Shown in pieces: positions 1,634 through 61,746 of a DNA stretch of 64,000 bases (positions are counted from its first letter, which is position 1; the number at the start of each line of letters is the position of its first letter). Source of the DNA: Anaerolineae bacterium. Its GTDB lineage: Bacteria; Chloroflexota; Anaerolineae; DTPP01. The stretch spans positions 332-64,331 of the forward strand of contig JBMFPD010000001.1 of NCBI GenBank assembly GCA_049969295.1, read 5' to 3'. The notes beneath the pieces are model-generated. The model was given only the letters and a program-made list of their open reading frames with translations, made no database searches and was not told the origin of the DNA. A program made the translations under genes and the position numbers.

Positions 1634-3712
1634 ATGGCCCGGCCCTGTCCTCTGGAACGGGTTCGCAACATCGGCATGATCGCCCACATTGATGCGGGCA
1701 AGACGACCACGACGGAGCGGGTCCTGTTCTATGCCGGGCGGACCCACCGCATGGGCAATGTGGACGAAGGCACCACCGTCACCGACTGGATGGAGCAAGA
1801 GCGGGAACGGGGCATCACCATCACCGCCGCCGCGGTGACCTGCTTCTGGCGCGACCATCAGATCAACATCATTGACACGCCCGGGCACATTGACTTCACG
1901 GCAGAGGTCCAGCGCAGCCTGCGGGTGCTGGACGGCGGGGTGGTCATCTTTGACGCCGTGGCCGGCGTGGAGCCCCAGTCGGAGACGGTCTGGCGGCAGG
2001 CCGACCGCTATGGCGTGCCCCGCATCTGCTTCATTAACAAAATGGATCGGTTGGGGGCCGACTTCTGGCGGGCGGTGGAGACGATCCGCGAGCGCCTGAA
2101 CGCCAACCCGGTGGCGGTACAGGTCCCCATCGGGGTGGAGGCCTCCTTCCAGGGCCTGGTGGACCTCATCACGGGCAAGGCCCTCCTCTACGCCGATGAC
2201 CTGGGCACAGTCATCCGCTCCACGGAGGTCCCAGAGGACCTGCAGGAGGAAGTGGCCCTGCGCCGCGCCCAGATGCTGGAGCAGATCGTGGAGACGGACG
2301 ACGCCCTTCTGGAGCGGTACCTGGAAGGGGAGGAGATCGCCCCCGAGGCGCTCCGGCGGGCCCTGCGGCGGGCCACCATCCAGGGCAAACTGGTCCCGGT
2401 CCTCTGCGGTGCGGCGTTGCGGAACAAGGGGGTGCAGCCCCTCCTGGATGCGGTGGTGGACTACCTGCCCTCGCCCCTGGACGTGCCCCCGATCCGCGGG
2501 ACACACCCGAAGACGGGCGAAGTGCTGGAGCGGCCGCCGGAGGAGAACGGCCCCTTGACTGCGCTGGCCTTCAAGGTGGTCTCCGACCCCTACGTGGGGC
2601 GTCTGGTCTACTTCCGGGTCTATTCCGGCAAGGTCCGTTCGGGGCAGGCGGTGCTGAACGCCACCCGGGACTGCAAGGAGCGGATGGGGCGCATCCTGCG
2701 GATGTACGCCAACCACCGCGAGGAGGTGGAGGAGGTCCACACAGGGGACATCGGCGCGGCCCTGGGCCTGAAGATGACCTTCACCGGGGAGACGCTGTGC
2801 GACCTTTCCCACCCCATCGTCCTGGAGCCCATCACCTTCCCGGAGCCGGTCATCTCCGTGGCCATTGAGCCCAGGACGCAGGCCGACCAGGACAGGCTGA
2901 CGGAAGCCCTGGAGCGGCTGGCGGAGGAGGACCCCACCTTCCGGGTCCGGGTGGACGAGAACACCGGCCAGACCATCATCTCTGGCATGGGCGAACTGCA
3001 CCTGGAGGTGCTCCTGGACCGGATGGTGCGGGAGTTCCATGTGGCGGCCCACGTGGGCAAGCCGCAGGTCGCCTACCGGGAGACCATCACCCAGAAGGTG
3101 GAGGCCACGGCGCGGTTCGTGCGGCCGGGGACGGTCAAGCCGCAGTTCGCCGAGGTGACGCTGGAGGTGGAGCCCCTGCCCAAGGGAGGGGGGCTGGTCT
3201 TTGAGAACCGTCTGCCGGAGAAGGTCTGGCCGCCTTCGGTCATCGCCGCGGTGGAGGCTGGCGTGCGGGAGGCCATGGAGAGCGGCATGCTGGCCGGCTA
3301 CCCAATGGTGGACGTCAAGGCGGTGCTGGTCCACGCGGCGAGCGACGAAGAAGGGGCCTCCGAGCAGGCCTTCAAGGTGGCTGGGTCCATGGCCTTCCGC
3401 GAAGCGGCGCGCAAGGCAGGGCCGGTCCTGCTGGAACCGATCATGAAAGTGGAGGTGGTGACGCCGGATGCCTTCACCGGCGACGTGTTGAGCGACCTGA
3501 ACGCCCGCCGCGCCCAGATTGAGCGGATGGAACTCCGCTCCGACGGGATGCAGGTGGTCCGGGCCCTGGTGCCGCTGGCACGCATGTTCGGCTATGCCAC
3601 CGACCTGCGCTCCGCCACCCAGGGACGGGGGACCTTCACCCTGGAGTTTGACCACTACGCCCCGGTCTCCCAGGAGGTGCTGGAGAAGATGCTGGGCGGC
3701 TGGGTGGCCTGA
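1634..3712 (+). CDS. fusA: Elongation factor G
   Basis: G-domain motifs [17 protein letters not shown] and NKMD are present. The start MARP... was trimmed and is preceded by the RBS GGAGGAG. Confidence 0.92.
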
Positions 3713-3715
3713 GCG

Positions 3716-3807
3716 CTCTTCCCGGCGCAGAGGGCACGCCAGGAGGCGTGCCCTACGGTCTGTCGTGCCAGAAGGCCGTCAGAGTTCTATAAGCGGGTCA
3801 GCCCTGT
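3716..3807 (+). repeat. Conserved intergenic element, copy 1 (core CTCTTCCCGGCGCAGAGGGCACGCC-AGGA-GGCGTGCCCTACGGTCTG); ~95% identical to copy 2 across the full extent
   Basis: Begins 3 nt after the fusA stop. Contains the perfect 9-bp inverted repeat GGGCACGCC/GGCGTGCCC. Copies recur at 29205, 34153 and 60210 (the last in reverse orientation). Confidence 0.7.
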
Positions 3808-3826
3808 CCCAAAGAGGGGGTGGGAT

Positions 3827-3854
3827 TTGCCAAAGGGACCCCTCTGCGTATAAT
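3827..3854 (+). promoter_or_regulatory. Sigma-70-like promoter for tuf (-35 TTGCCA, 16-nt spacer, -10 TATAAT)
   Basis: Hexamers read directly from the sequence, downstream of a CCCCTCT hairpin. Confidence 0.5.
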
Positions 3855-26519: not shown

Positions 26520-26622
26520 ATCGCCCGGGCAGGCCTTGCGGCTGCGTTTCGTGGTGGGCCGCCCGAGCGACCCCGCCGCTCGCCCGGCGCTGGCGCAGGA
26601 CGGTGTCCGATGGCCTTCTGAC

Positions 26623-29114: not shown

Positions 29115-29144
29115 ATTATAAACCCCAGCGCGGGCAACCGTCAA
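29115..29144 (-). promoter_or_regulatory. Sigma-70-like promoter for ilvD (-35 TTGACG, 18-nt spacer, -10 TATAAT)
   Basis: Read from the reverse complement. Confidence 0.4.
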
Positions 29145-29204
29145 CCACCAGAGGGGAGTCGGCAGGGCTGTCCCCGTTTTTACAAAAGGGGAAGGCCATG
29201 ACCG

Positions 29205-29298
29205 CTCTTCCCGGCGCAGAGGGCACGCCAGGGAGGCGTACCCTACGGTCTGCTGTGCCAGAAGACGGTCAGAGTTCTGTAAGAATGGGTCAGCCCTG
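29205..29298 (+). repeat. Conserved intergenic element, copy 2
   Basis: ~95% identical to 3716..3807; the palindrome is GGGCACGCC-AGGGA-GGCGTACCC. Confidence 0.7.
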
Positions 29299-29317
29299 CC
29301 CGCGGCCTCCGCGGCAA

Positions 29318-29346
29318 TTGACATTCGGCTGGAGTTCTTTTACAAT
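29318..29346 (+). promoter_or_regulatory. Sigma-70-like promoter for the EF-G paralogue (-35 TTGACA, 17-nt spacer, -10 TACAAT)
   Basis: Consensus hexamers read directly from the sequence. Confidence 0.55.
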
Positions 29347-29473
29347 ATTGATTGGCCCCTCGTCGGTGCTCTTTACTATAGGGCGGGGTTGCATTTCCTC
29401 AGTTCTGCACCGGCCTGGGGTGCCGGGGCGTCCCGGCAAGGCACGATTCAGGAACCGCTTTGAGGAGGGTTGG

Positions 29474-31552
29474 ATGGCGCAGTACGCGTTGGATAAGATC
29501 CGCAACATCGCCCTGCTGGGGCACCTGAGTGCCGGCAAAACGTCGCTGGCCGAGGCCATGCTCTACGACAGCGGGGCGACCACCCGTCTGGGGCGTGTGG
29601 AGGACGGCAACACCGTCACCGACTACGACGCCGAGGAGATCCGCCGCAAGATCTCCGTCAGCATGGCCATGGCCCCCTGCGAGTGGAAGGGGGGCAAGAT
29701 CAACGTCATTGACACGCCCGGCTACGTGGACTTCATCGGCGAGGTGAAGAGCGCGGTCTGGGCCGCCGATGCCGCGGTCATCGTGCTGGATGCCGTCTCC
29801 GGCGTGGAAGTGGGGACCGAACAGGTCTGGTCAGTGGCCGACGAACGGCACCTGCCCCGGCTGGCTTTCATTAATAAGATGGATCGCGAGAACGTCAATC
29901 CCGAAGCGGTCCTCGGGCAGTTGCAGGAGGTCTTCGGGGCCCGCATTGCCCGGGTCCAGATCCCTGTGGGCAAGGAGGCCGGTTTCCGTGGGGTGGTGGA
30001 CCTTCTGACCATGAAGGCGTACCTGGGGCCAGAAGGGAAGCCTCAGGAGATCCCTGCTGAATTGCAGGCTGAGGCCGAGGAGGCCCGCTTTGCCCTGGTG
30101 GAACTGGCGGCAGAAGGCGAGGATGCCCTGCTGGAGAAGTACCTGGAGGAAGGGGCCCTGACGGAAGAGGAGATCGCCCGGGGCCTGCGCACTGCCATCC
30201 TGCGGGGCCAGGTCCTGCCGGTCGTCTACGGGGCAGCCACCGCCAACCTGGGCATCCAGGCCTTCATGGACGCTGTCTTCGCCCTCCTCCCCCACCCCGG
30301 TGAGGTGCCCGTGCGGGCCAGGGACCTGGGCACGGGCGAAGAGGTGGAACTTCGCTCCGAGGAAGATGGGCCCCTGGCCGCCATGGTCTTCAAGACCATG
30401 GCCGACCCCTACGTGGGCAAGATCTCCTACCTGCGCATCTTCTCCGGCGTCCTGGAGTCGGACTCCCGCGTCTTCAACCCCCGGACCGGCCAGGAGGAAC
30501 GGATCGGCCAGCTGGCCATGATGCGGGGCAAGGAGCAGATCCCCGTGCCGGCCCTGCGGGCTGGCGACATCGGCGCGGTGACCAAACTGGCGGAGACGGC
30601 CACGGGCGATACCCTGTGCGACCGGGGGCGGCCCCTGGAACTGCCCCGGCCGACCTTCCCCTACCGGCCCTTCTGGGTGGCGGTGAAGCCGGAGACGAAG
30701 GCCGATGCGGCCAAGATCACCACAGCCCTCACCCGCCTGTGCGAGGAAGACCCCAGCCTGGAGTGGCACCAGGAGCCCAGCACCAAAGAGATGATCCTGA
30801 CGGGCATGGGGGACGTGCACATTGACGTGGCGGCGCGCCGGCTCAAGGAGCGCCTGGGGGTGGGTATCGTGCTGGCCGTGCCCAAGGTCCCCTACCGGGA
30901 AACCATCACCAAGACCGTGAGCACCCAGTACCGCCACAAGAAGCAGACCGGCGGCGCGGGCCAGTTCGCCGAGGTGCACCTGCGGGTGGAACCCCTGGAG
31001 CGGGGGGCTGGGTACGAGTTCGTCTGGGAGGTCTTCGGCGGGCACATCTCCAGTTCCTTCCAGCCCTCCATTGAAAAGGGGATCAAGCAGGTGATGGAAC
31101 AGGGCGTCATCGCCGGGTACCCGGTGGTGGACGTCAAGTGCGCGGTCTATGACGGCAAGGAGCACCCGGTGGACTCCAAGGACATCGCCTTCCAGATCGC
31201 CGGGCGGGAGGTGTTCAAGAAGGCGGTGCTGGAGGCGTCCCCCGTCCTCCTGGAGCCCATCATGAACATCACGGTCACCGTCCCGGAGCAGTTCATGGGC
31301 GATGTCATCAGCGACCTGACCAGCGTGCGCCGGGGCCGCGTGCAGGACACGCAGTTGGAGCACGGCAAGGCCATCATCCGGGGGCAGGCGCCCCTGGCAG
31401 AACTCCTGCGCTACGGGCCGGACCTGCGCTCCATGACCCAGGGGCGGGGCTACTACACCATTGAACTGTCCCACTACGAGGTGGTGCCGCCGCACGTGGC
31501 GGAGCCGGTCATCGCGGCGGCCCGGCGAGAGCGGGAAGAAAAAGAGAGCTGA
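29474..31552 (+). CDS. EF-G-like GTPase paralogue (EF-G2-type) with an atypical G-domain: P-loop GHLSAGKTS, switch II DTPGYVDF (catalytic His replaced by Tyr)
   Basis: 692 aa from MAQYALDKIRNIALLG..., after the RBS GAGGAGGG. All five EF-G domains are recognisable. The track ORF has a 150-aa spurious extension. Confidence 0.85.
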   Translation: MAQYALDKIRNIALLGHLSAGKTSLAEAMLYDSGATTRLGRVEDGNTVTDYDAEEIRRKISVSMAMAPCEWKGGKINVIDTPGYVDFIGEVKSAVWAADAAVIVLDAVSGVEVGTEQVWSVADERHLPRLAFINKMDRENVNPEAVLGQLQEVFGARIARVQIPVGKEAGFRGVVDLLTMKAYLGPEGKPQEIPAELQAEAEEARFALVELAAEGEDALLEKYLEEGALTEEEIARGLRTAILRGQVLPVVYGAATANLGIQAFMDAVFALLPHPGEVPVRARDLGTGEEVELRSEEDGPLAAMVFKTMADPYVGKISYLRIFSGVLESDSRVFNPRTGQEERIGQLAMMRGKEQIPVPALRAGDIGAVTKLAETATGDTLCDRGRPLELPRPTFPYRPFWVAVKPETKADAAKITTALTRLCEEDPSLEWHQEPSTKEMILTGMGDVHIDVAARRLKERLGVGIVLAVPKVPYRETITKTVSTQYRHKKQTGGAGQFAEVHLRVEPLERGAGYEFVWEVFGGHISSSFQPSIEKGIKQVMEQGVIAGYPVVDVKCAVYDGKEHPVDSKDIAFQIAGREVFKKAVLEASPVLLEPIMNITVTVPEQFMGDVISDLTSVRRGRVQDTQLEHGKAIIRGQAPLAELLRYGPDLRSMTQGRGYYTIELSHYEVVPPHVAEPVIAAARREREEKES

Positions 31553-31565
31553 TTCCACACCCCAA

Positions 31566-31602
31566 GGAGGGCAGGGCCGCAGCCCTGCCCTCCTTTTCTT
31601 TT
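31566..31602. terminator. Rho-independent terminator (12-bp stem GGAGGGCAGGGC/GCCCTGCCCTCC followed by TTTTCTTTT) after the EF-G paralogue
   Basis: Read directly from the sequence. Confidence 0.7.
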
Positions 31603-33265
31603 ACAAGCCCGAGGCGCGCCGTGGGGCGGGAGCCCCGTGGCGCAGGGGCACGCGCAGGGTGACCTGGGTGCCGCGGTCCGGGCCGCTGGTCGCGGACTCA
31701 ATGGTCAGGGTGCCGTCAATCAGGGCGCTCCGCTCCTTCATGTTGAGGAGGCCGAAGGAGCGCCGCTTGTCGTAGTCCTTTTCCACGGCCGCGACGTTGA
31801 ACCCCACGCCGTCGTCCCGCACCGTGACCACCAGTTCCTCGCCCTGGGCCTCCAGGCGCAGCCAGACGTGCTGGGCCTTGGCGTGCCGCTTGATGTTGTT
31901 CACCGCCTCCTGGATGATGGAGAAGACGGTCCCTTCCACCTGTAGGGGCAGCCGCTCGTGGAAGTTGACCACCTCTAAAGAGACCTCAAACTCCTCGCTC
32001 CCCTGCAACTGCTCCACATAGGACTGCAGCGCGGCGACCAGGCCCTGGGTCTCCAGGATGACCGGGCGCAGTTCAAAGAGGAGGAGCCGGGTTTCCTTGG
32101 TGGCCTGGCGCACCAGGCGGCGCAGGGCGTCCAGTTCGGCGTAGACGGCATCGGGTTTCACCTCCAGGAGCCGCTCCACGTGGTCCAGGCCCATGCCGAT
32201 GGCCGCCAGCAACTGCACCGTGCCGTCGTGGAGGTTGCGGGCCAGTTCGCGCCGCACGTCTTCCTGGGCCTTGATGATCTTGTCCCGCTCCTCCCGCAGG
32301 GATTGGTAGAGGCGGGCGTTGTCAATGGCGATGGCGGCCTGGGCGGCAATGCTCTGGAGCATGCTCAGGTCTTCCGTGTCAAACCCGGACGCATCCAGTT
32401 TGTTGAGCACTTCCAGCACGCCGATGGTGCGGCCCCGGATCTCCAGAGGCACAGCGGCGATGGAGCGGGTGGTGAAGCCGGATTGCTTGTCCACCCGGTC
32501 CAGGAAACGGGGGTCCTTCTGCACGTCGTTGACGATGACTGGCTGGCCGTGGGTGGCCACCCAGCCGGCGATCCCCTCGTTCAGGCCGATGCGGAGTTTG
32601 CGCACTTCGGCGCTCTTCTCGCCGATGGCGTACTCAAAGACCAGTTCGTTGGTCTCGGTATCAATGAGCATGAGGGAGGCAGCCGCGGCGTTGACGATGG
32701 TGGTGGCCACCTCCGTGGTTTCGTCCAGGAGTTGCCCCAGGTCAAAGGTGGAGACCATGCTCTGGCCCACCTGGAGGAAGAGTTCCATCTGGGTGAGGCG
32801 GTGCTCCGTCATCTGCACACGCCAGAGGAGCGCGGCCCACTCCCCCAGGAAGGTCAGAAGGGCGCGCAGGTCTGCCTCCCGGTCCTCGGGGAACCCCACG
32901 TTGGGGGGGACCTGCACCGAGAGGGAGCCCATCAACGCGCCGTTGCCCAGGATGGGCGCGCTGAGGAGCAGGGGCAGCCCCTCGCCCAGAGGGTGGCGGG
33001 CGATGGCCAGGCGCGGCACGGGAGCCTGCCTCCCGCGGGCGCTCTCCAGGCGGGCCTGGACACCCCTTTCCCAGCGGTCCACCTGCTCCGCCGCCTTGGG
33101 GTGGAAGGTGCCGAACTGGACGCGGAGGGGAGGTGTCCCCACGAAGAGCAGGGAACCAGCAGGGGCATCGGCCACGCGACAGGCGGTGCGGAGGGAGGCC
33201 TCCAGGAACGAAGGCAGGTCCTTGCTCTCGGTCAGGTGCAGAAGCGTCTCCACCGACAGGCTCAT
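31601..33265 (-). CDS. Sensor histidine kinase with tandem GAF domains, a HisKA_3 H-box and a HATPase_c domain
   Basis: H-box ...ARNLHDGTVQLLAAIGMGLD...; C-terminal kinase signature region ...IQEAVNNIKRHAKAQ...DDGVGF... Confidence 0.8.
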   Translation of the reverse strand: MSLSVETLLHLTESKDLPSFLEASLRTACRVADAPAGSLLFVGTPPLRVQFGTFHPKAAEQVDRWERGVQARLESARGRQAPVPRLAIARHPLGEGLPLLLSAPILGNGALMGSLSVQVPPNVGFPEDREADLRALLTFLGEWAALLWRVQMTEHRLTQMELFLQVGQSMVSTFDLGQLLDETTEVATTIVNAAAASLMLIDTETNELVFEYAIGEKSAEVRKLRIGLNEGIAGWVATHGQPVIVNDVQKDPRFLDRVDKQSGFTTRSIAAVPLEIRGRTIGVLEVLNKLDASGFDTEDLSMLQSIAAQAAIAIDNARLYQSLREERDKIIKAQEDVRRELARNLHDGTVQLLAAIGMGLDHVERLLEVKPDAVYAELDALRRLVRQATKETRLLLFELRPVILETQGLVAALQSYVEQLQGSEEFEVSLEVVNFHERLPLQVEGTVFSIIQEAVNNIKRHAKAQHVWLRLEAQGEELVVTVRDDGVGFNVAAVEKDYDKRRSFGLLNMKERSALIDGTLTIESATSGPDRGTQVTLRVPLRHGAPAPRRASGL

Positions 33266-33283
33266 GGGCAGTTCAACTTGGGT

Positions 33284-33949
33284 TCACAAGGTGATATCCA
33301 GAAGCCCCTCGCCGATCTTGCGCAGCGTCTCCGCGGACAGCTGGCTCAGGAGCATGGCCACCCGGATGTAAAGCACGTTGGAGGGCTGCGCGATGAACGC
33401 CCGGACGTCCTCCGGCATCTGGGCCAGGCTGGAGAGGGGGGCCTCCCCCTGCTCCTCCTGGGGGAGGAGGTCCGGGTCCACGAAATGAGAGAGGGAAAGG
33501 CCGATGGCCTCGGCCAGGCGTTCCAGGTCCGGGAGGGGGAGGTCCTCCTCGCCGAACTCCACGGCAGCCAGGCGCTCTGGGGGGTAGCCGACGACCTCCG
33601 CGCACTCCCTGAGGGTCTTCCCCCGGGCGAGCCTGGCCTGGCGCAAGAGGACGCCGATCATCTTGCGGCGGATGGCCAGGTACTCCCGGACGTCGGCGGG
33701 GATGGAGGCTTGGGGGACGGGCTTGTCGTCCAGGAGGCTGGCGATGGGCACGCCGTAGATGCGGCTCAGGAGCTCCAACTGGGGCAGGGAGGGGGAGGCG
33801 TCGCCCCGCTCGCAGCGGGCGAGGAGGGAAGGGGAAAGGCCAGCGCGTGCGGCGGCTTCCTTGTGGGAGAGGTTGGCGGCCAGCCGGGCCCTCCGCAGGA
33901 GCCGGCCCAGGAGTTCACGGCGGGTTGGCGGAACACACGGCTCAGTCAT
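33284..33949 (-). CDS. Transcriptional regulator with two tandem XRE-type helix-turn-helix domains
   Basis: Two HTH_XRE-like segments (LRRARLAANLSHKEAAARAGLSPSLLARCERG and LRQARLARGKTLRECAEVVGY...). Lies 18 nt upstream of the kinase. Confidence 0.7.
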   Translation of the reverse strand: MTEPCVPPTRRELLGRLLRRARLAANLSHKEAAARAGLSPSLLARCERGDASPSLPQLELLSRIYGVPIASLLDDKPVPQASIPADVREYLAIRRKMIGVLLRQARLARGKTLRECAEVVGYPPERLAAVEFGEEDLPLPDLERLAEAIGLSLSHFVDPDLLPQEEQGEAPLSSLAQMPEDVRAFIAQPSNVLYIRVAMLLSQLSAETLRKIGEGLLDITL

Positions 33950-34152
33950 GGCGGCCCTCCCTCTGCGCCTCCCAGCCTTCGGAACAATCGTGCATTGTCA
34001 TTCTATCTGCTTTTATACGCCGTGTCAAGCAAGGGGGTTGTTGGTTGCGGTTGCACCTTGTGTTGGTGAGTCGGGGACACGGGAAGACCGACCTCTCCCA
34101 TCCCCCCATCCCCTTCCCTCCGCATCGGGGAGGGAAGGGGGTGCCGCAACTG

Positions 34153-34200
34153 CTCTTCCCGGCGCAGGGGGCACGCCAGAAGGCGTGCTCTACGGTCCTG
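34153..34200 (+). repeat. Conserved intergenic element, copy 3 (core only)
   Basis: CTCTTCCCGGCGCAGGGGGCACGCCAGAAGGCGTGCTCTACGGTCCTG. Confidence 0.65.
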
Positions 34201-34233
34201 CGGTCCGAGGGTGGCTTGCCCGCGCTCCGCAAT

Positions 34234-34262
34234 TTGACATTCTGCGGGAATGATGCTATCCT
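34234..34262 (+). promoter_or_regulatory. Sigma-70-like promoter of the aromatic operon (-35 TTGACA, 17-nt spacer, -10 TATCCT)
   Basis: Read directly from the sequence; lies 34 nt downstream of element copy 3. Confidence 0.5.
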
Positions 34263-39093: not shown

Positions 39094-39208
39094 CCAGAGG
39101 ATTCTGATCATATCTGATCATACGGACTCCTGAGCACCCCTCCCCCAGCCCCCGCATGCGGGGAGGGGGCCCAGGGGGTGGGGTTGGGGGGCGCACAGCC
39201 GTGCGTCC
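39094..39208. repeat. GC-rich hairpin repeat, family copy A (GAGGATTCTGA...CTGAGCACCCCTCCCCC...GGGGAGGGGG...GCGCACAGCCGTGCG)
   Basis: Nested poly-C/poly-G inverted repeats plus a GCGCACGGCCGTGCGC-type palindrome. Paralogous copies lie at 43898 and 58296. A separate hairpin CCCTTCCCCTTCTCC/GGAGAGAGGAAGGGGG lies at 39043..39080. Confidence 0.7.
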
Positions 39209-40342: not shown

Positions 40343-41924
40343 AGGGCGCAACCTCGTCCTGACCGGCCTCATGGGGACGGGCAAGAGCCGCGTTGGGCGG
40401 CTGCTGGCCGCCGCGCTGGGCCGGGAGTTCGCCGATACCGACGCCCTCATCGTCCAGCGGGAGGGACGCTCCATCGCCGAGATCTTCGCCCACTCCGGCG
40501 AGCCTTACTTCCGCCAGGTGGAACTCCAGGTATGCCGGGAACTGGGAGCGCGGCGCGACCTGGTCATCGCCACGGGAGGCGGCGCGCTGGTGCACGAGGC
40601 CGGGCGGCAGGCCCTGGGGCGGAACGGCCTCGTCGTCTGCCTGCGGGGAGCCCCCAGGACCCTTGCCCAGCGCGTGGTGCAGGACGAAGAGACCCGCCCC
40701 CTCCTCCTGGGGAAGGACCCGGAGGCGGCTCTGGAGGCCCTCTGGCGGGCGCGGCGCAACGCCTACGCCCTGGCCCCTCTCCAGGTGGCCACCGACGGCC
40801 GCACTCCCGAGGAGGTGTGCCAGGCCATCCTGGATGCCCTCCAGCCCCGCCTGGACCGCCTGGAGCAGGTGCCCGTCTCGGTGCCCGGCGAGAAGGGATA
40901 CGCCGTCTGGCTGGGGGCCGGGGCGCTACGCCTCACGCCCCAGATGGTCCCCCTGCCGAAGGGCCGCCTCGCGGCTCTGGTGTGGGATGCCCACATCCCG
41001 GAGAGCCTGCCGGAGGATGTCCGCCGGGCCTGGGAGGAGGCCGGGTGCCGCGTGGCCTCCATCCCCCTGGAGGTGACGGAGGAGACCAAGACCCTGGCGA
41101 CGGCCGCCGCGCTGTACGACCGGTTCCTGGAGGCGCGCCTGGATCGGGGGACCCCGGTCCTCATCCTGGGGGGCGGGGTGACGACGGACCTGGTGGGGTT
41201 TGCCGCGGCCACCTTCATGCGGGGTCTCCCCACCTTCACCCTGCCCACCACCCTCCTGGGCGCAGTGGACGCCAGCGTGGGCGGCAAGACTGGCGTCAAC
41301 CTGCCCCAGGGGAAGAACCTGGTGGGCGTCGTCTGGCCGCCCAGGGCCGTGGCCGTGGACCCGGTGGCCCTCTACACCCTGCCTGACGAGGAAATCCGCG
41401 CCGGCCTGGCCGAGACAGTCAAGGCGGGGGTGATCGGCTCGCCCGCGCTCTTCACCCACCTGGAAACGAACGGCCTGGAGGACCTCCCCTGGATCGTGGC
41501 CGAGGCGGTGCGGGTCAAGGCCCGCGTCGTGAGCGAAGACCCCTACGAGCGGGGACCCCGTGCCTATCTGAACCTGGGGCACACCTTCGGCCACGCACTG
41601 GAGGTCCTCTCGGGGTACCGCCTCCCCCACGGACGGGCGGTGGCGATGGGGATGGTCGTGGCGGCGCGCCTGGGCGAGGTCCTGGGCCTGGTGGATGCGG
41701 CTTTCACGGCGCGCCTTGTGGCCCTCATGGAGGCCCTGGGCCTTCCCACCCGTCCTCCCGACCTCCCCTTTGACGAGGTGTGGCAGGCCATGCACGCCGA
41801 CAAGAAGAAGCAGGCCGGCCGGCTGCGTTTCGTGGTGCCGGCCGGCATCGGGAAGGTCGTCCTGCGGGACGACGTGACGGACGCCCAGGTGCGGGAAGCC
41901 TGGGAAAGGAGCATGACGCCATGA
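40332..41924 (+). CDS. aroKB: Bifunctional shikimate kinase / 3-dehydroquinate synthase (AroK-AroB fusion)
   Basis: The N-terminus has the P-loop GLMGTGKS (shikimate kinase); the C-terminal ~360 aa are the DHQ synthase fold (..[15 protein letters not shown]..). GTG start overlapping the aroC stop. Confidence 0.85.
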
Positions 41925-43897: not shown

Positions 43898-43984
43898 ATC
43901 TTCTGAGCACCCCTCCCCCCGCCTCCTCCCCGCGTGCGGGGAGAGGGCCGGGGGAGGGGTTGGAAGGCGCACGGCCGTGCGCCG
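43898..43984. repeat. GC-rich hairpin repeat, family copy B, between the convergent genes prs and the M1 peptidase
   Basis: CTTCTGAGCACCCCTCCCCCC...GCGGGGAGAGGG...GGCGCACGGCCGTGCGCC (perfect 18-nt palindrome). Confidence 0.7.
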
Positions 43985-58295: not shown

Positions 58296-58405
58296 GGAGG
58301 ATTCTGACAATACGCTCTTCTGAGCACCCCTCCCCCAGCCCCCTCCCCGCACGCGGGGAGGGGGCCCAGGGGGTGGGGTTGGAAGGCGCACGGCCGTGCG
58401 CCCCT
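58296..58405. repeat. GC-rich hairpin repeat, family copy C
   Basis: GAGGATTCTGACAATA...CTGAGCACCCCTCCCCCAGCCCCCTCCCCGCACGCGGGGAGGGGGCCCAGGGGGTGGGGTTGGAAGGCGCACGGCCGTGCGCC; closely matches copy A. Confidence 0.7.
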
Positions 58406-60093: not shown

Positions 60094-60122
60094 ATTATAC
60101 CAAGATGAGGAAGGGTTGACAA
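60094..60122 (-). promoter_or_regulatory. Sigma-70-like promoter (-35 TTGTCA, 17-nt spacer, extended -10 TGGTATAAT) for the 528-aa gene
   Basis: Read from the reverse complement; the predicted TSS is ~38 nt upstream of the GTG. Confidence 0.5.
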
Positions 60123-60209
60123 ATAGTCTCTGCGACCGGGCAGGGTCTCCCTTGCGGTTGCCTTTCGTGCTGGTCGTCTGGGCAAATCCATCTGCTCAGT
60201 TGCGAGGAT

Positions 60210-60254
60210 CAGACCGTAGGGCACGCCTCCTGGCGTGCCTCTGCGCCGGGAAGC
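60210..60254 (-). repeat. Conserved intergenic element, copy 4 (reverse orientation)
   Basis: CAGACCGTAGGGCACGCCTCCTGGCGTGCCTCTGCGCCGGGAAG is the reverse complement of the core at 3716/29205. It lies ~88 nt upstream of the minus-strand promoter. Confidence 0.65.
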
Positions 60255-60330
60255 CCCTTGTAGCATGCCCCCTGGCGTGCCAAAGATGCTGTAAAAAACG
60301 AGACAACCCCAAGCCACGGGCCCTGTGCAG

Positions 60331-60359
60331 TTGCCTTTCGGAACAAGCCGTGATACAAT
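60331..60359 (+). promoter_or_regulatory. Sigma-70-like promoter (-35 TTGCCT, 17-nt spacer, -10 TACAAT) starting a ~320-nt untranslated or unannotated stretch before the next gene
   Basis: Read directly from the sequence. Confidence 0.4.
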
Positions 60360-61511: not shown

Positions 61512-61746
61512 GGGGGGAAAGGCCGCTGCACCTTGCGTCAGCCGTTCGGGCGACCTCACCGCTCGCCCGGTGTCGGCACAGGCCGACGCGCCCGACCTCT
61601 CCCCCGAACCCTCTCCTCACCTGCGGGGAGAGGGCTGGGGGAGGGGTCGTCGCTTCCCGCAGGGGGACGGCCTGACCACCGGACGCGGCATCCGCAAAGC
61701 CATCCGCACAAGCACAAGATGGAACCGGGCCGAACCGCAACCCAAC

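Follow-up and report, generated by a model that had tools for sequence, protein, structure and literature searches.

A miniature transposable element with ISAs1-type ends lies at a near-constant distance upstream of promoter-like sequences in Anaerolineae

A 64-kb stretch of DNA from an Anaerolineae bacterium (contig JBMFPD010000001.1, positions 332 to 64,331; hereafter, the window) carries four copies of a palindromic repeat, numbered 1 to 4 by position, that the initial annotation had placed upstream of sigma-70-like promoters and read as a probable regulatory site. [quoted passage not shown] As such it is an ordinary ISAs1-type MITE in Anaerolineae, and the novelty lies in its placement relative to promoters, where "promoter" denotes a match to the −35/−10 consensus. 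The promoter link proved real and tighter than had been claimed, with the −35 box 17–20 nt from the element terminus (P ~1e-40). We think it probable, with some reserve, that insertion of this MITE is targeted to approximately −50 of pre-existing sigma-70-type promoters.

The ~47-nt "core" initially described is only the centre of a non-coding, multi-copy unit of ~136 nt (range ~133–145 nt), which is too short for a transposase gene. Full-length copies have 21-nt terminal inverted repeats at both ends (CAGGGCTGACTCRTTYTTACA ... TGTAAGAATGAGTCAGCCCTG). These repeats pair with each other in the predicted fold, a rod-like foldback from end to end that is tipped by a GTAG-tagged GC hairpin (RNA fold of copy 2, −71.9 kcal/mol, z = −6.0; of the 5′-truncated copy 1, approximately −50.1 kcal/mol). 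Target-site duplications of 10 bp abut the termini in 7 of ~11 complete copies. Three of them are perfect (TATCCTTCCA, AGTAGGGGTG, and GTAGGGCCGG), and the four others are perfect or one base off (GCAACCCCC, TTCCCTCGT(G/A)T, GGTCCGT(A/G)GA, and GGAGGGAGATG). Together, the terminal inverted repeats, the 10-bp duplications, the foldback, the multiple copies and the variable presence at orthologous sites (below) mark the unit as a MITE. A "MITE-like mobile repeat" had been the alternative offered by the initial annotation and is the one that holds; the flanking duplications that it had named as favouring a mobile element are present.

Copies outside the window came from two scans. The hairpin followed by CTAC, searched in one genome per species, returned many unrelated matches plus seven loci in the Anaerolineae metagenome-assembled genome (MAG) H25_343 (DAOTYM01), in which the same hairpin lies inside sequence that aligns with the window copies far past the core. 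Searching metagenomes with a 16-mer of the right arm brought in roughly a dozen further copies, found in three samples. Besides the four copies in the window there are ~20 independent copies elsewhere, many of them at contig ends, as expected of a multi-copy repeat, and the sample amounts to ~20 insertion events in two lineages. Insertions with perfect or near-perfect duplications include copies 92–100% identical to the reference copy (L013). Conservation is highest in the central ~47 nt, which does not differ between two lineages that are 81% identical overall and survives in the decayed copies 3 and 4; this part may thus have a role of its own. Covariation in the foldback amounted to 2 compensatory pairs among 49, which with only two lineages sampled is too sparse to judge selection on the fold. 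Some copies have internal duplications (7 nt, CTACGGT, in L106; 14 nt in L125), and copy 4 has an extra partial hairpin (GGCACGCCAGGGGGCATGCTAC, 60263–60284 on the minus strand). Two right-end-only copies (L141 4783–4829 and L160 1681–1722) have in common an unrelated ~45-nt left sequence (..CTCGCCCATGCCAAAT) and differ in their right flanks; they may represent a chimeric sub-family of the element.

Promoter pairs in the window were located by an independent consensus scan. A total of 13 sites in the 64 kb passed the promoter criteria, and seven of these flank the four copies, as do five of the six best promoter-like sites (11 of 12 matches). The promoter pairs originally reported beside each copy were thus recovered, whereas the "same orientation" of copy and promoter is meaningless, because copies 2, 3 and 4 have a divergent pair too. 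Likewise, the constant 65–66 nt between core and promoter in copies 1 and 2 is seen, but merely reflects their shared right half plus a gap of 19–20 nt to the −35 box. For a wider comparison, one flank per distinct sequence was pooled (17 right and 14 left, 31 in total, mutually unrelated by BLAST) and scanned outward. A −35 box lay 17–20 nt (mode 19) beyond the terminus in 15 of the 31 flanks by strict matching, in 19 by loose matching and in 20 by best score. The strict matches had offsets of 17 (n = 1), 18 (n = 3), 19 (n = 7), and 20 nt (n = 5), and only four strict matches were found elsewhere within 150 nt of a terminus. The background in the same loci was 0.0006 per flank (strict) or 0.0018 (loose), from which the binomial P given above follows. 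No base preference was seen within the 19 nt between terminus and −35 box.

Either end of the element may lie next to the promoter. It faces the right end only in L013, L106 and L111, the left end only in L186, L194 and L100, and promoters face both ends in window copy 2, L091, L125 and L196; the last arrangement indicates that the element went in halfway between back-to-back promoters, with ~27 bp then separating their −35 boxes. There was no orientation bias toward the promoter, though the interior of the element is asymmetric. The first 10 of the ~19 nt are the duplication, so that the cut spans approximately −54 to −45 of the promoter, and 9 nt are left between the duplication and the −35 box. 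The left flank of L100 has a poor −35 box and an extended −10 at the expected place, which hints that the promoter, rather than the TTGACA hexamer alone, is what matters.

Orthologous loci in relatives (87–93% DNA identity) were reached through an exact match to the window S10 protein; exact-protein look-ups with the tuf, EF-G paralogue (EF-G2) and helix-turn-helix (HTH) proteins gave no match. EF-G2 is 100% identical to a protein entered as "MAG: elongation factor G [Anaerolineae bacterium]". Comparison with the orthologous intergenic regions, which had been proposed as a check on the regulatory interpretation, went against it: the element is absent at the fusA–tuf, EF-G2 and HTH promoters, and the promoters are kept. 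In L208 (92–93% DNA identity), 5 nt (CGGCA) replace window positions 3715–3806, and the fusA–tuf spacer reads ...CCTGAGC-CGGCA-TCCCAAAGAGGGGGCGGGA-TTTGCC...TATAAT, with the same stop codon and tuf promoter as the window. Similarity seems to begin at 3706, and we considered whether the element supplies the fusA stop; this was rejected, as the element-free L208 has the same ...GCCTGAGC. Upstream of EF-G2, the element is absent from L213 and L214 (96%-identical EF-G2) and from L216 (81%-identical). L213 and L214 carry an identical 29-nt EF-G2 promoter (TTGACATTCGGCTGGAGTTCTTTTACAAT), and homology between the window and L213 begins at 29305, 6 bases past the end of copy 2. The HTH-gene promoter to the left of copy 3 is kept in element-free relatives, with homology ending at 34035, 7 bases past the −35 box. 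Copies 2 and 3 are both missing from L213, L214 and L216, and ~150 kb of the relatives' DNA held no copy of the element. Since relatives without the element keep the same promoters, these alignments indicate that the promoters predate the insertions.

ISAs1-family insertion sequences have CAGGG termini and duplicate 8–10 bp of their target. The first 9 nt of the element, CAGGGCTGA, are the start of the left inverted repeat of ISArsp11, a member of this family (CAGGGCTGATGCAAAGTCG, beginning CAGGGCTGATGC...; 10-bp duplication; PMC6305408). The E. coli H-repeat around yhhI ends in CAGGG/CCCTG, and seven autonomous ISAs1-family elements on plasmids of Ralstonia, Hydrogenophilus, Azospirillum, Streptomyces, Acaryochloris, Sinorhizobium and Aeromonas each have CAGGG(C/G/T) ends, with perfect 10-bp duplications in five of the seven. 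The CAGGG(C) ends and the 10-bp duplication therefore match the repeat to this family (ISAs1, IS1358, the E. coli H-repeat/ISEc1, ISArsp11, and ISRm21). It differs from these members in being 136 nt long without a transposase gene, in its foldback interior with a hairpin like those of repetitive extragenic palindromic (REP) sequences, and in being promoter-adjacent. Mobilisation is presumably by an ISAs1-like DDE transposase whose gene lies elsewhere in the genome.

The central hairpin reads GTAG-GGCACGCC-loop-GGCGTGCC on the minus strand, and CTAC follows GGCGTGCC in all four window copies. A GTAG next to a GC palindrome is the REP signature, and GTAG REPs, the kind associated with REP-associated tyrosine transposases (RAYTs), have been reported in Chloroflexi among other phyla (PMC3733652). 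The likeness is that of a GC palindrome tagged by GTAG. Unlike REPs, the hairpin here caps a larger element that has terminal repeats and duplications. In the window it occurs only within the four MITE copies, with no standalone copies, and no RAYT was seen there, although no search aimed at one was made. The same stem (GGCACGCC/GGCGTGCC plus CTAC, i.e., GTAG), joined to different loops, recurs as a multi-copy REP-type repeat across several unrelated phyla, namely in an Acidobacteriota MAG (CBDBGQ01; L006, L024, and L040), an Oscillospiraceae MAG (CAZKSR01; L016, L019, L064, and L067), Armatimonadota (L020, L021, and L041), and Clostridia (L008, L044, and L078). These repeats lack the MITE arms and often lie beside other GTAG hairpins; they were rejected as MITE copies because the arms are missing, and belong to a different, REP-type family. 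The identity of the stem across phyla suggests a widely shared hairpin specificity, possibly that of a RAYT. The same 24–25-nt string also lies inside the tuf coding sequence (..LARQVGVPY..) of mostly betaproteobacterial genomes and one Solirubrobacterales MAG (L001, L009, L010, L012, L023, L028, L034, L051, L069, and L072). This is a codon coincidence, so the hairpin pattern alone is not diagnostic.

In the mechanism that we propose, the staggered cut would be placed so that the 10-bp duplication covers approximately −54 to −45 of an existing promoter, with either element end free to face it. Between divergent promoters with −35 boxes ~27 bp apart the element would land midway, and the duplication would leave each promoter its own 18–19 bp of upstream DNA. 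The target would be chosen by the transposition machinery, for which we can offer two speculations. The machinery may meet promoter DNA that is held, bent or wrapped by RNA polymerase, −50 being the zone of the UP element and of the C-terminal domain of the alpha subunit (alpha-CTD); alternatively, the transposase may bind a −35-like sequence similar to the inner portion of the element's own terminal repeat, in which motifs resembling a −35 box occur at positions 6–10 (CTGAC) and 16–21 (TTTACA/CTTACA). A predicted partner element bounded by CAGGGCTGACTC... ends would supply the DDE transposase. In this account the window's elongation-factor genes form no regulon; they simply have strong promoters.

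The bias most likely arises at insertion. By a rough estimate (~1500 promoters, ~4 Mb genome), <<1% of random insertions would fall within the 4-nt window of offsets, against ~75% of elements observed there; copies 92–100% identical to L013 that bear perfect or near-perfect duplications are included, the offsets form a spike rather than a tail, and no orientation bias is seen. A stronger version, in which the transposition machinery recognises promoters as such (holoenzyme-wrapped or bent DNA, alpha-CTD/sigma region 4) and integrates at approximately −50, is put forward tentatively, as something that could be so rather than something we expect.

Several observations weigh against targeted insertion. 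About a quarter of the elements have no promoter at the expected place (L142, L160, and L005/L048), and the promoters themselves are consensus matches only. No cognate ISAs1 transposase was found in the window or in the loci retrieved up to that search (tblastn with an ISAs1 transposase; the only match was in E. coli), and the terminal repeat had 0 matches in viral contigs. Copy 2 has no matching target-site duplication visible at its flanks, and copies 2 and 3 have flanking sequence in common (detailed below), so that some copies probably spread by recombination or segmental duplication rather than transposition. None of the 14 flanks of the seven autonomous ISAs1 elements has a promoter at the 17–20 nt offset, for which reason promoter adjacency was rejected as a general ISAs1 trait, and a large survey found ISAs1 to be enriched between convergent genes (PMC9208149). 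As autonomous ISAs1 elements lack this placement, targeting would be special to this element or its transposase clade.

That the placement is not a family trait is also the main reason why an explanation by selection stays alive. Insertion would then be random, and only copies exactly upstream of promoters would persist since the element helps the promoter, possibly by serving as an AT-rich module upstream, by spacing or insulating divergent promoters from each other, or through a host-protein site on the central hairpin. The conservation of the central ~47 nt across two lineages and its survival in copies 3 and 4 fit such a benefit, as does the fact that the duplication leaves divergent promoters their full 18–19 bp of upstream DNA, which makes insertions at least harmless. 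Contrary to what tolerance or benefit would lead one to expect, the matches form a spike at 17–20 nt with almost nothing from 21 to 150 nt. The pattern is moreover already present in copies with perfect or near-perfect duplications that are 92–100% identical to L013, orientation is unbiased despite the asymmetric interior, and hardly any insertions lie at neutral sites, e.g., convergent intergenic regions. In our judgement, an explanation by selection following random insertion is unlikely. We consider it improbable that the element is retained for a function in RNA, where the transcribed foldback (e.g., by fusA–tuf read-through) would be an RNase III/RNase E site or an mRNA stabiliser. The folds of copies 1 and 2 are very stable, and Correia and ERIC MITEs act at the RNA level in this way (PMC10969869), but most copies are found in divergent spacers that are not transcribed, upstream of promoters, the hairpin is not followed by a U-tract terminator and has no Rfam match, and the covariation is uninformative. 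The initial annotation had suggested that copy 1, between fusA and tuf, may act as an RNA hairpin or a processing site; this is possible, with an RNA-level role of this copy at most a side effect.

Two further explanations centre on the hairpin itself. If mobility or function belonged to the hairpin, with a tyrosine HUH transposase (a RAYT) moving it and the arms incidental, the GTAG tag, the reports of GTAG REPs in Chloroflexi, the multi-copy identical stems in Acidobacteriota, Oscillospiraceae and Armatimonadota MAGs and the second partial hairpin of copy 4 would all find a place; yet the hairpin is never seen outside the MITE in the window, and terminal inverted repeats with 10-bp duplications are not products of HUH single-strand transposition, which makes this very improbable. 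We give hardly any credence to the operator originally favoured, in which the 9-bp inverted repeat would bind a dimeric regulator of tuf, the EF-G paralogue, the aro operon and a hypothetical gene. A perfect inverted repeat of 9–10 bp with a 4–5 nt spacer does lie upstream of promoter-like sites in all four copies, but it forms the centre of a mobile element that has terminal repeats and is flanked by duplications, and it is absent at the same promoters (tuf, EF-G2, and HTH) of 87–93%-identical relatives. The distance from hairpin to −35 box varies (~35, 65, 65, and 87 nt), the fixed distance being that from the element terminus, and in other phyla this GTAG-tagged hairpin is found as a generic repeat of the REP type (PMC3733652). 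The growth-rate or stringent regulon suggested along with the operator fares no better, as the element flanks unrelated genes in the other Anaerolineae lineage and the empty orthologous sites keep their promoters. The terminal repeats, the duplications and the empty sites led us to reject both operator and regulon.

Set beside other bacterial MITEs (Neisseria Correia/NEMIS, enterobacterial ERIC, pneumococcal RUP, and cyanobacterial Nezha), the element is alike in being small, non-coding and multi-copy, with terminal inverted repeats, target duplications, a long hairpin, an intergenic location near genes and strain-variable presence. Correia elements carry promoter parts of their own and duplicate TA, whereas the element here has no promoter, a 10-bp duplication and a fixed 17–20 nt offset. 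Nucleotide-precise promoter placement was not found for any bacterial MITE in the literature, reviews and surveys of MITEs included, an absence of evidence only, given the incomplete coverage. Nor did the searchable literature on ISAs1 target preference and insertion sequence (IS) target specificity describe a bacterial element at a fixed distance upstream of the −35 boxes of many unrelated promoters, and we know of no case in which such a distance is nucleotide-precise. Among the known targets of bacterial transposons are specific sequences, REPs, replication forks, tRNA or glmS ends, and the transposons' own ends. IS30 and IS911 (sequences like their own ends) and IS1397/ISKpn1 and the IS110 family (REPs) are comparable in their strong site preference, which might, by speculation, also here stem from a transposase that binds target DNA resembling its own ends. 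Their target is one repeated sequence, in contrast to the functional class (promoters with −35 and −10) targeted here. The retrotransposons Ty3 and Ty1 of yeast, TRE5-A of Dictyostelium and Tf1 of S. pombe are guided by RNA polymerase III/II transcription factors. They are alike in outcome, with insertion a fixed short distance upstream and coding sequence spared, and differ in kind from a bacterial DDE-type DNA element beside sigma-70-type promoters.

If the transposition machinery does recognise promoters as such, the element would do among bacterial DNA transposons what Ty3, Ty1 and TRE5-A do in targeting polymerase III genes, with a "safe-harbour" strategy that spares both coding sequence and promoter and that could be used to map or tag active promoters. 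A mechanistic bias would represent a new way of target choice, in which the architecture of the promoter, or the RNA polymerase bound there, is read. The tolerance of a small genome for the element would be explained as well, each back-to-back promoter keeping its own upstream DNA, and there would be a sequence-only marker for real promoters in uncultured Chloroflexota.

All four copies in the window were confirmed at the places first given for them (Table 1). The sequence CTCTTCCCGGCGCAG is exact at 3716, 29205 and 34153 on the plus strand and has two mismatches at 60255–60241 within the minus-strand copy (60255–60210); the hairpin with CTAC is found at 3733, 29222 and 34170 (plus) and 60239 (minus), with no further occurrence in the 64 kb. 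None of 100 shuffles produced the exact palindrome. Copies 1 and 2 match at 85 of 95 aligned positions (89.5% identity), not ~95% as had been estimated. The genes flanking the copies are, by Pfam, fusA, ilvD, the EF-G paralogue, an XRE-type HTH gene and DAHP synthase, and on the left side of copy 1 the fusA coding sequence takes the place of a promoter pair. Rfam at the gathering threshold and a tRNA scan gave no match in the window. An intrinsic terminator after fusA was rejected because no T-run follows the hairpin; terminator-like sites were found neither at copies 1–3 nor at the hairpin of copy 4.

Table 1 Copies of the element and neighbouring promoter pairs in the window.
Feature	Position	Strand	Details
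Copy 1, 5′-truncated (consensus ~40–136)	3715–3806	+	nhmmer E = 3e-22; left ~40 nt missing; between fusA stop (3710–3712) and tuf promoter; right terminal repeat ends at 3806
Copy 1 central hairpin	3731–3754	+	AGGGCACGCC-AGGA-GGCGTGCCCT, CTAC at 3′ end; DNA fold −14.3 kcal/mol, z = −3.4
Copy 2, full-length, 136 nt	29163–29298	+	nhmmer E = 2e-33, hidden Markov model (HMM) positions 1–133
Copy 2 left terminal repeat	29163–29184		CAGGGCTGTCCCCGTTTTTACA
Copy 2 right terminal repeat	29278–29298		TGTAAGAATGGGTCAGCCCTG
Copy 3, decayed, centre intact	34124–34218	+	nhmmer E = 9e-10, envelope 34124–34217; left arm interrupted by hairpin of another repeat family; right arm deleted down to remnant GGTGGCTTG
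Copy 4, decayed	60208–60311	−	nhmmer E = 3e-10, HMM positions 3–89; left repeat remnant, extra partial hairpin, then core and hairpin
Copy 4 left repeat remnant	60310–60290		GGGGTTGTCTCGTTTTTTACA
Copy 4 possible right terminus	ends at 60141	−	GGGAGACCCTG; boundary read by eye only
tuf promoter pair	3827–3854	+	TTGCCA-16-TATAAT; 20 nt past end of copy 1; host sequence, also in L208
ilvD promoter pair	29115–29144	−	TTGACG-18-TATAAT; divergent, 18 nt outside left terminus of copy 2; ilvD by Pfam
EF-G paralogue promoter pair	29318–29346	+	TTGACA-17-TACAAT; 19 nt outside right terminus of copy 2
DAHP synthase (aro) promoter pair	34234–34262	+	TTGACA-17-TATCCT; ~15 nt past right remnant of copy 3
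XRE-type HTH gene (33949<-) promoter pair	34000–34028	−	TTGACA-17-TAGAAT; left side of copy 3
Promoter pair of 540-aa open reading frame (ORF; 60085<-)	60094–60122	−	TTGTCA-17-TATAAT; 18 nt past possible right terminus of copy 4
Divergent promoter pair	60331–60359	+	TTGCCT-17-TACAAT; 19 nt outside left terminus of copy 4

Copies 2 and 3 have in common ~10 nt of left flank (GGKGAGTCGG; 29153–29162 and 34063–34072), and on the right a stretch that runs through the −35 box and ~12 nt beyond (..CGC..CAATTGACATTCnGCnGGAnT; 29299–29336 and 34219–34252). Segmental duplication of copy 2 may have given rise to copy 3 and brought the EF-G2 −35 region ahead of the aro operon. The two copies also coincide with synteny breakpoints, being located at the edges of a 4.7-kb block (29305–34035; EF-G2, a GAF histidine kinase and the HTH gene) that is syntenic with L213 (9829–14570) and L214 at 87% identity. 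The block has ilvD and the aro operon as neighbours in the window, and a gene for an 1880-aa protein and Ham1 in the relatives. The element thus marks or mediates rearrangements, and is probably reshaping gene order around strong promoters. An origin of copies 4 and 2 by flank exchange of an ancestral spacer between the 1880-aa-protein gene and EF-G2 was considered and rejected, as the window has no homologue of that gene. The EF-G paralogue within the block (29474–31552; 692 aa) is a second full-length one; it has a strongly conserved promoter of its own and is located 26 kb away from the canonical fusA.

Other repeated sequences were noted in the window. The motif GAAAG(G/C)CAACCGCAAGG recurs in intergenic DNA near promoters (60145–60172, 26529–26556, and ~9640–9660 of L213). 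This repeat, termed "D20" (26529, 41810, and 60145), was tried as an alternative element end and rejected, the copy at 41810 lying inside the aroB coding sequence, probably by chance. A second interspersed family is found at 39137–39208, 43913–43984, 58332–58403 and 61602–61647. It consists of a GC-rich hairpin with C/G runs (CCCCTCCCC..GCGGGGAGGGG), often followed by a second hairpin (GGCGCACGGCCGTGCGCC), and most copies are located a few bases past the stop of a plus-strand ORF. One further copy (~34088–34140) has invaded the left arm of MITE copy 3.

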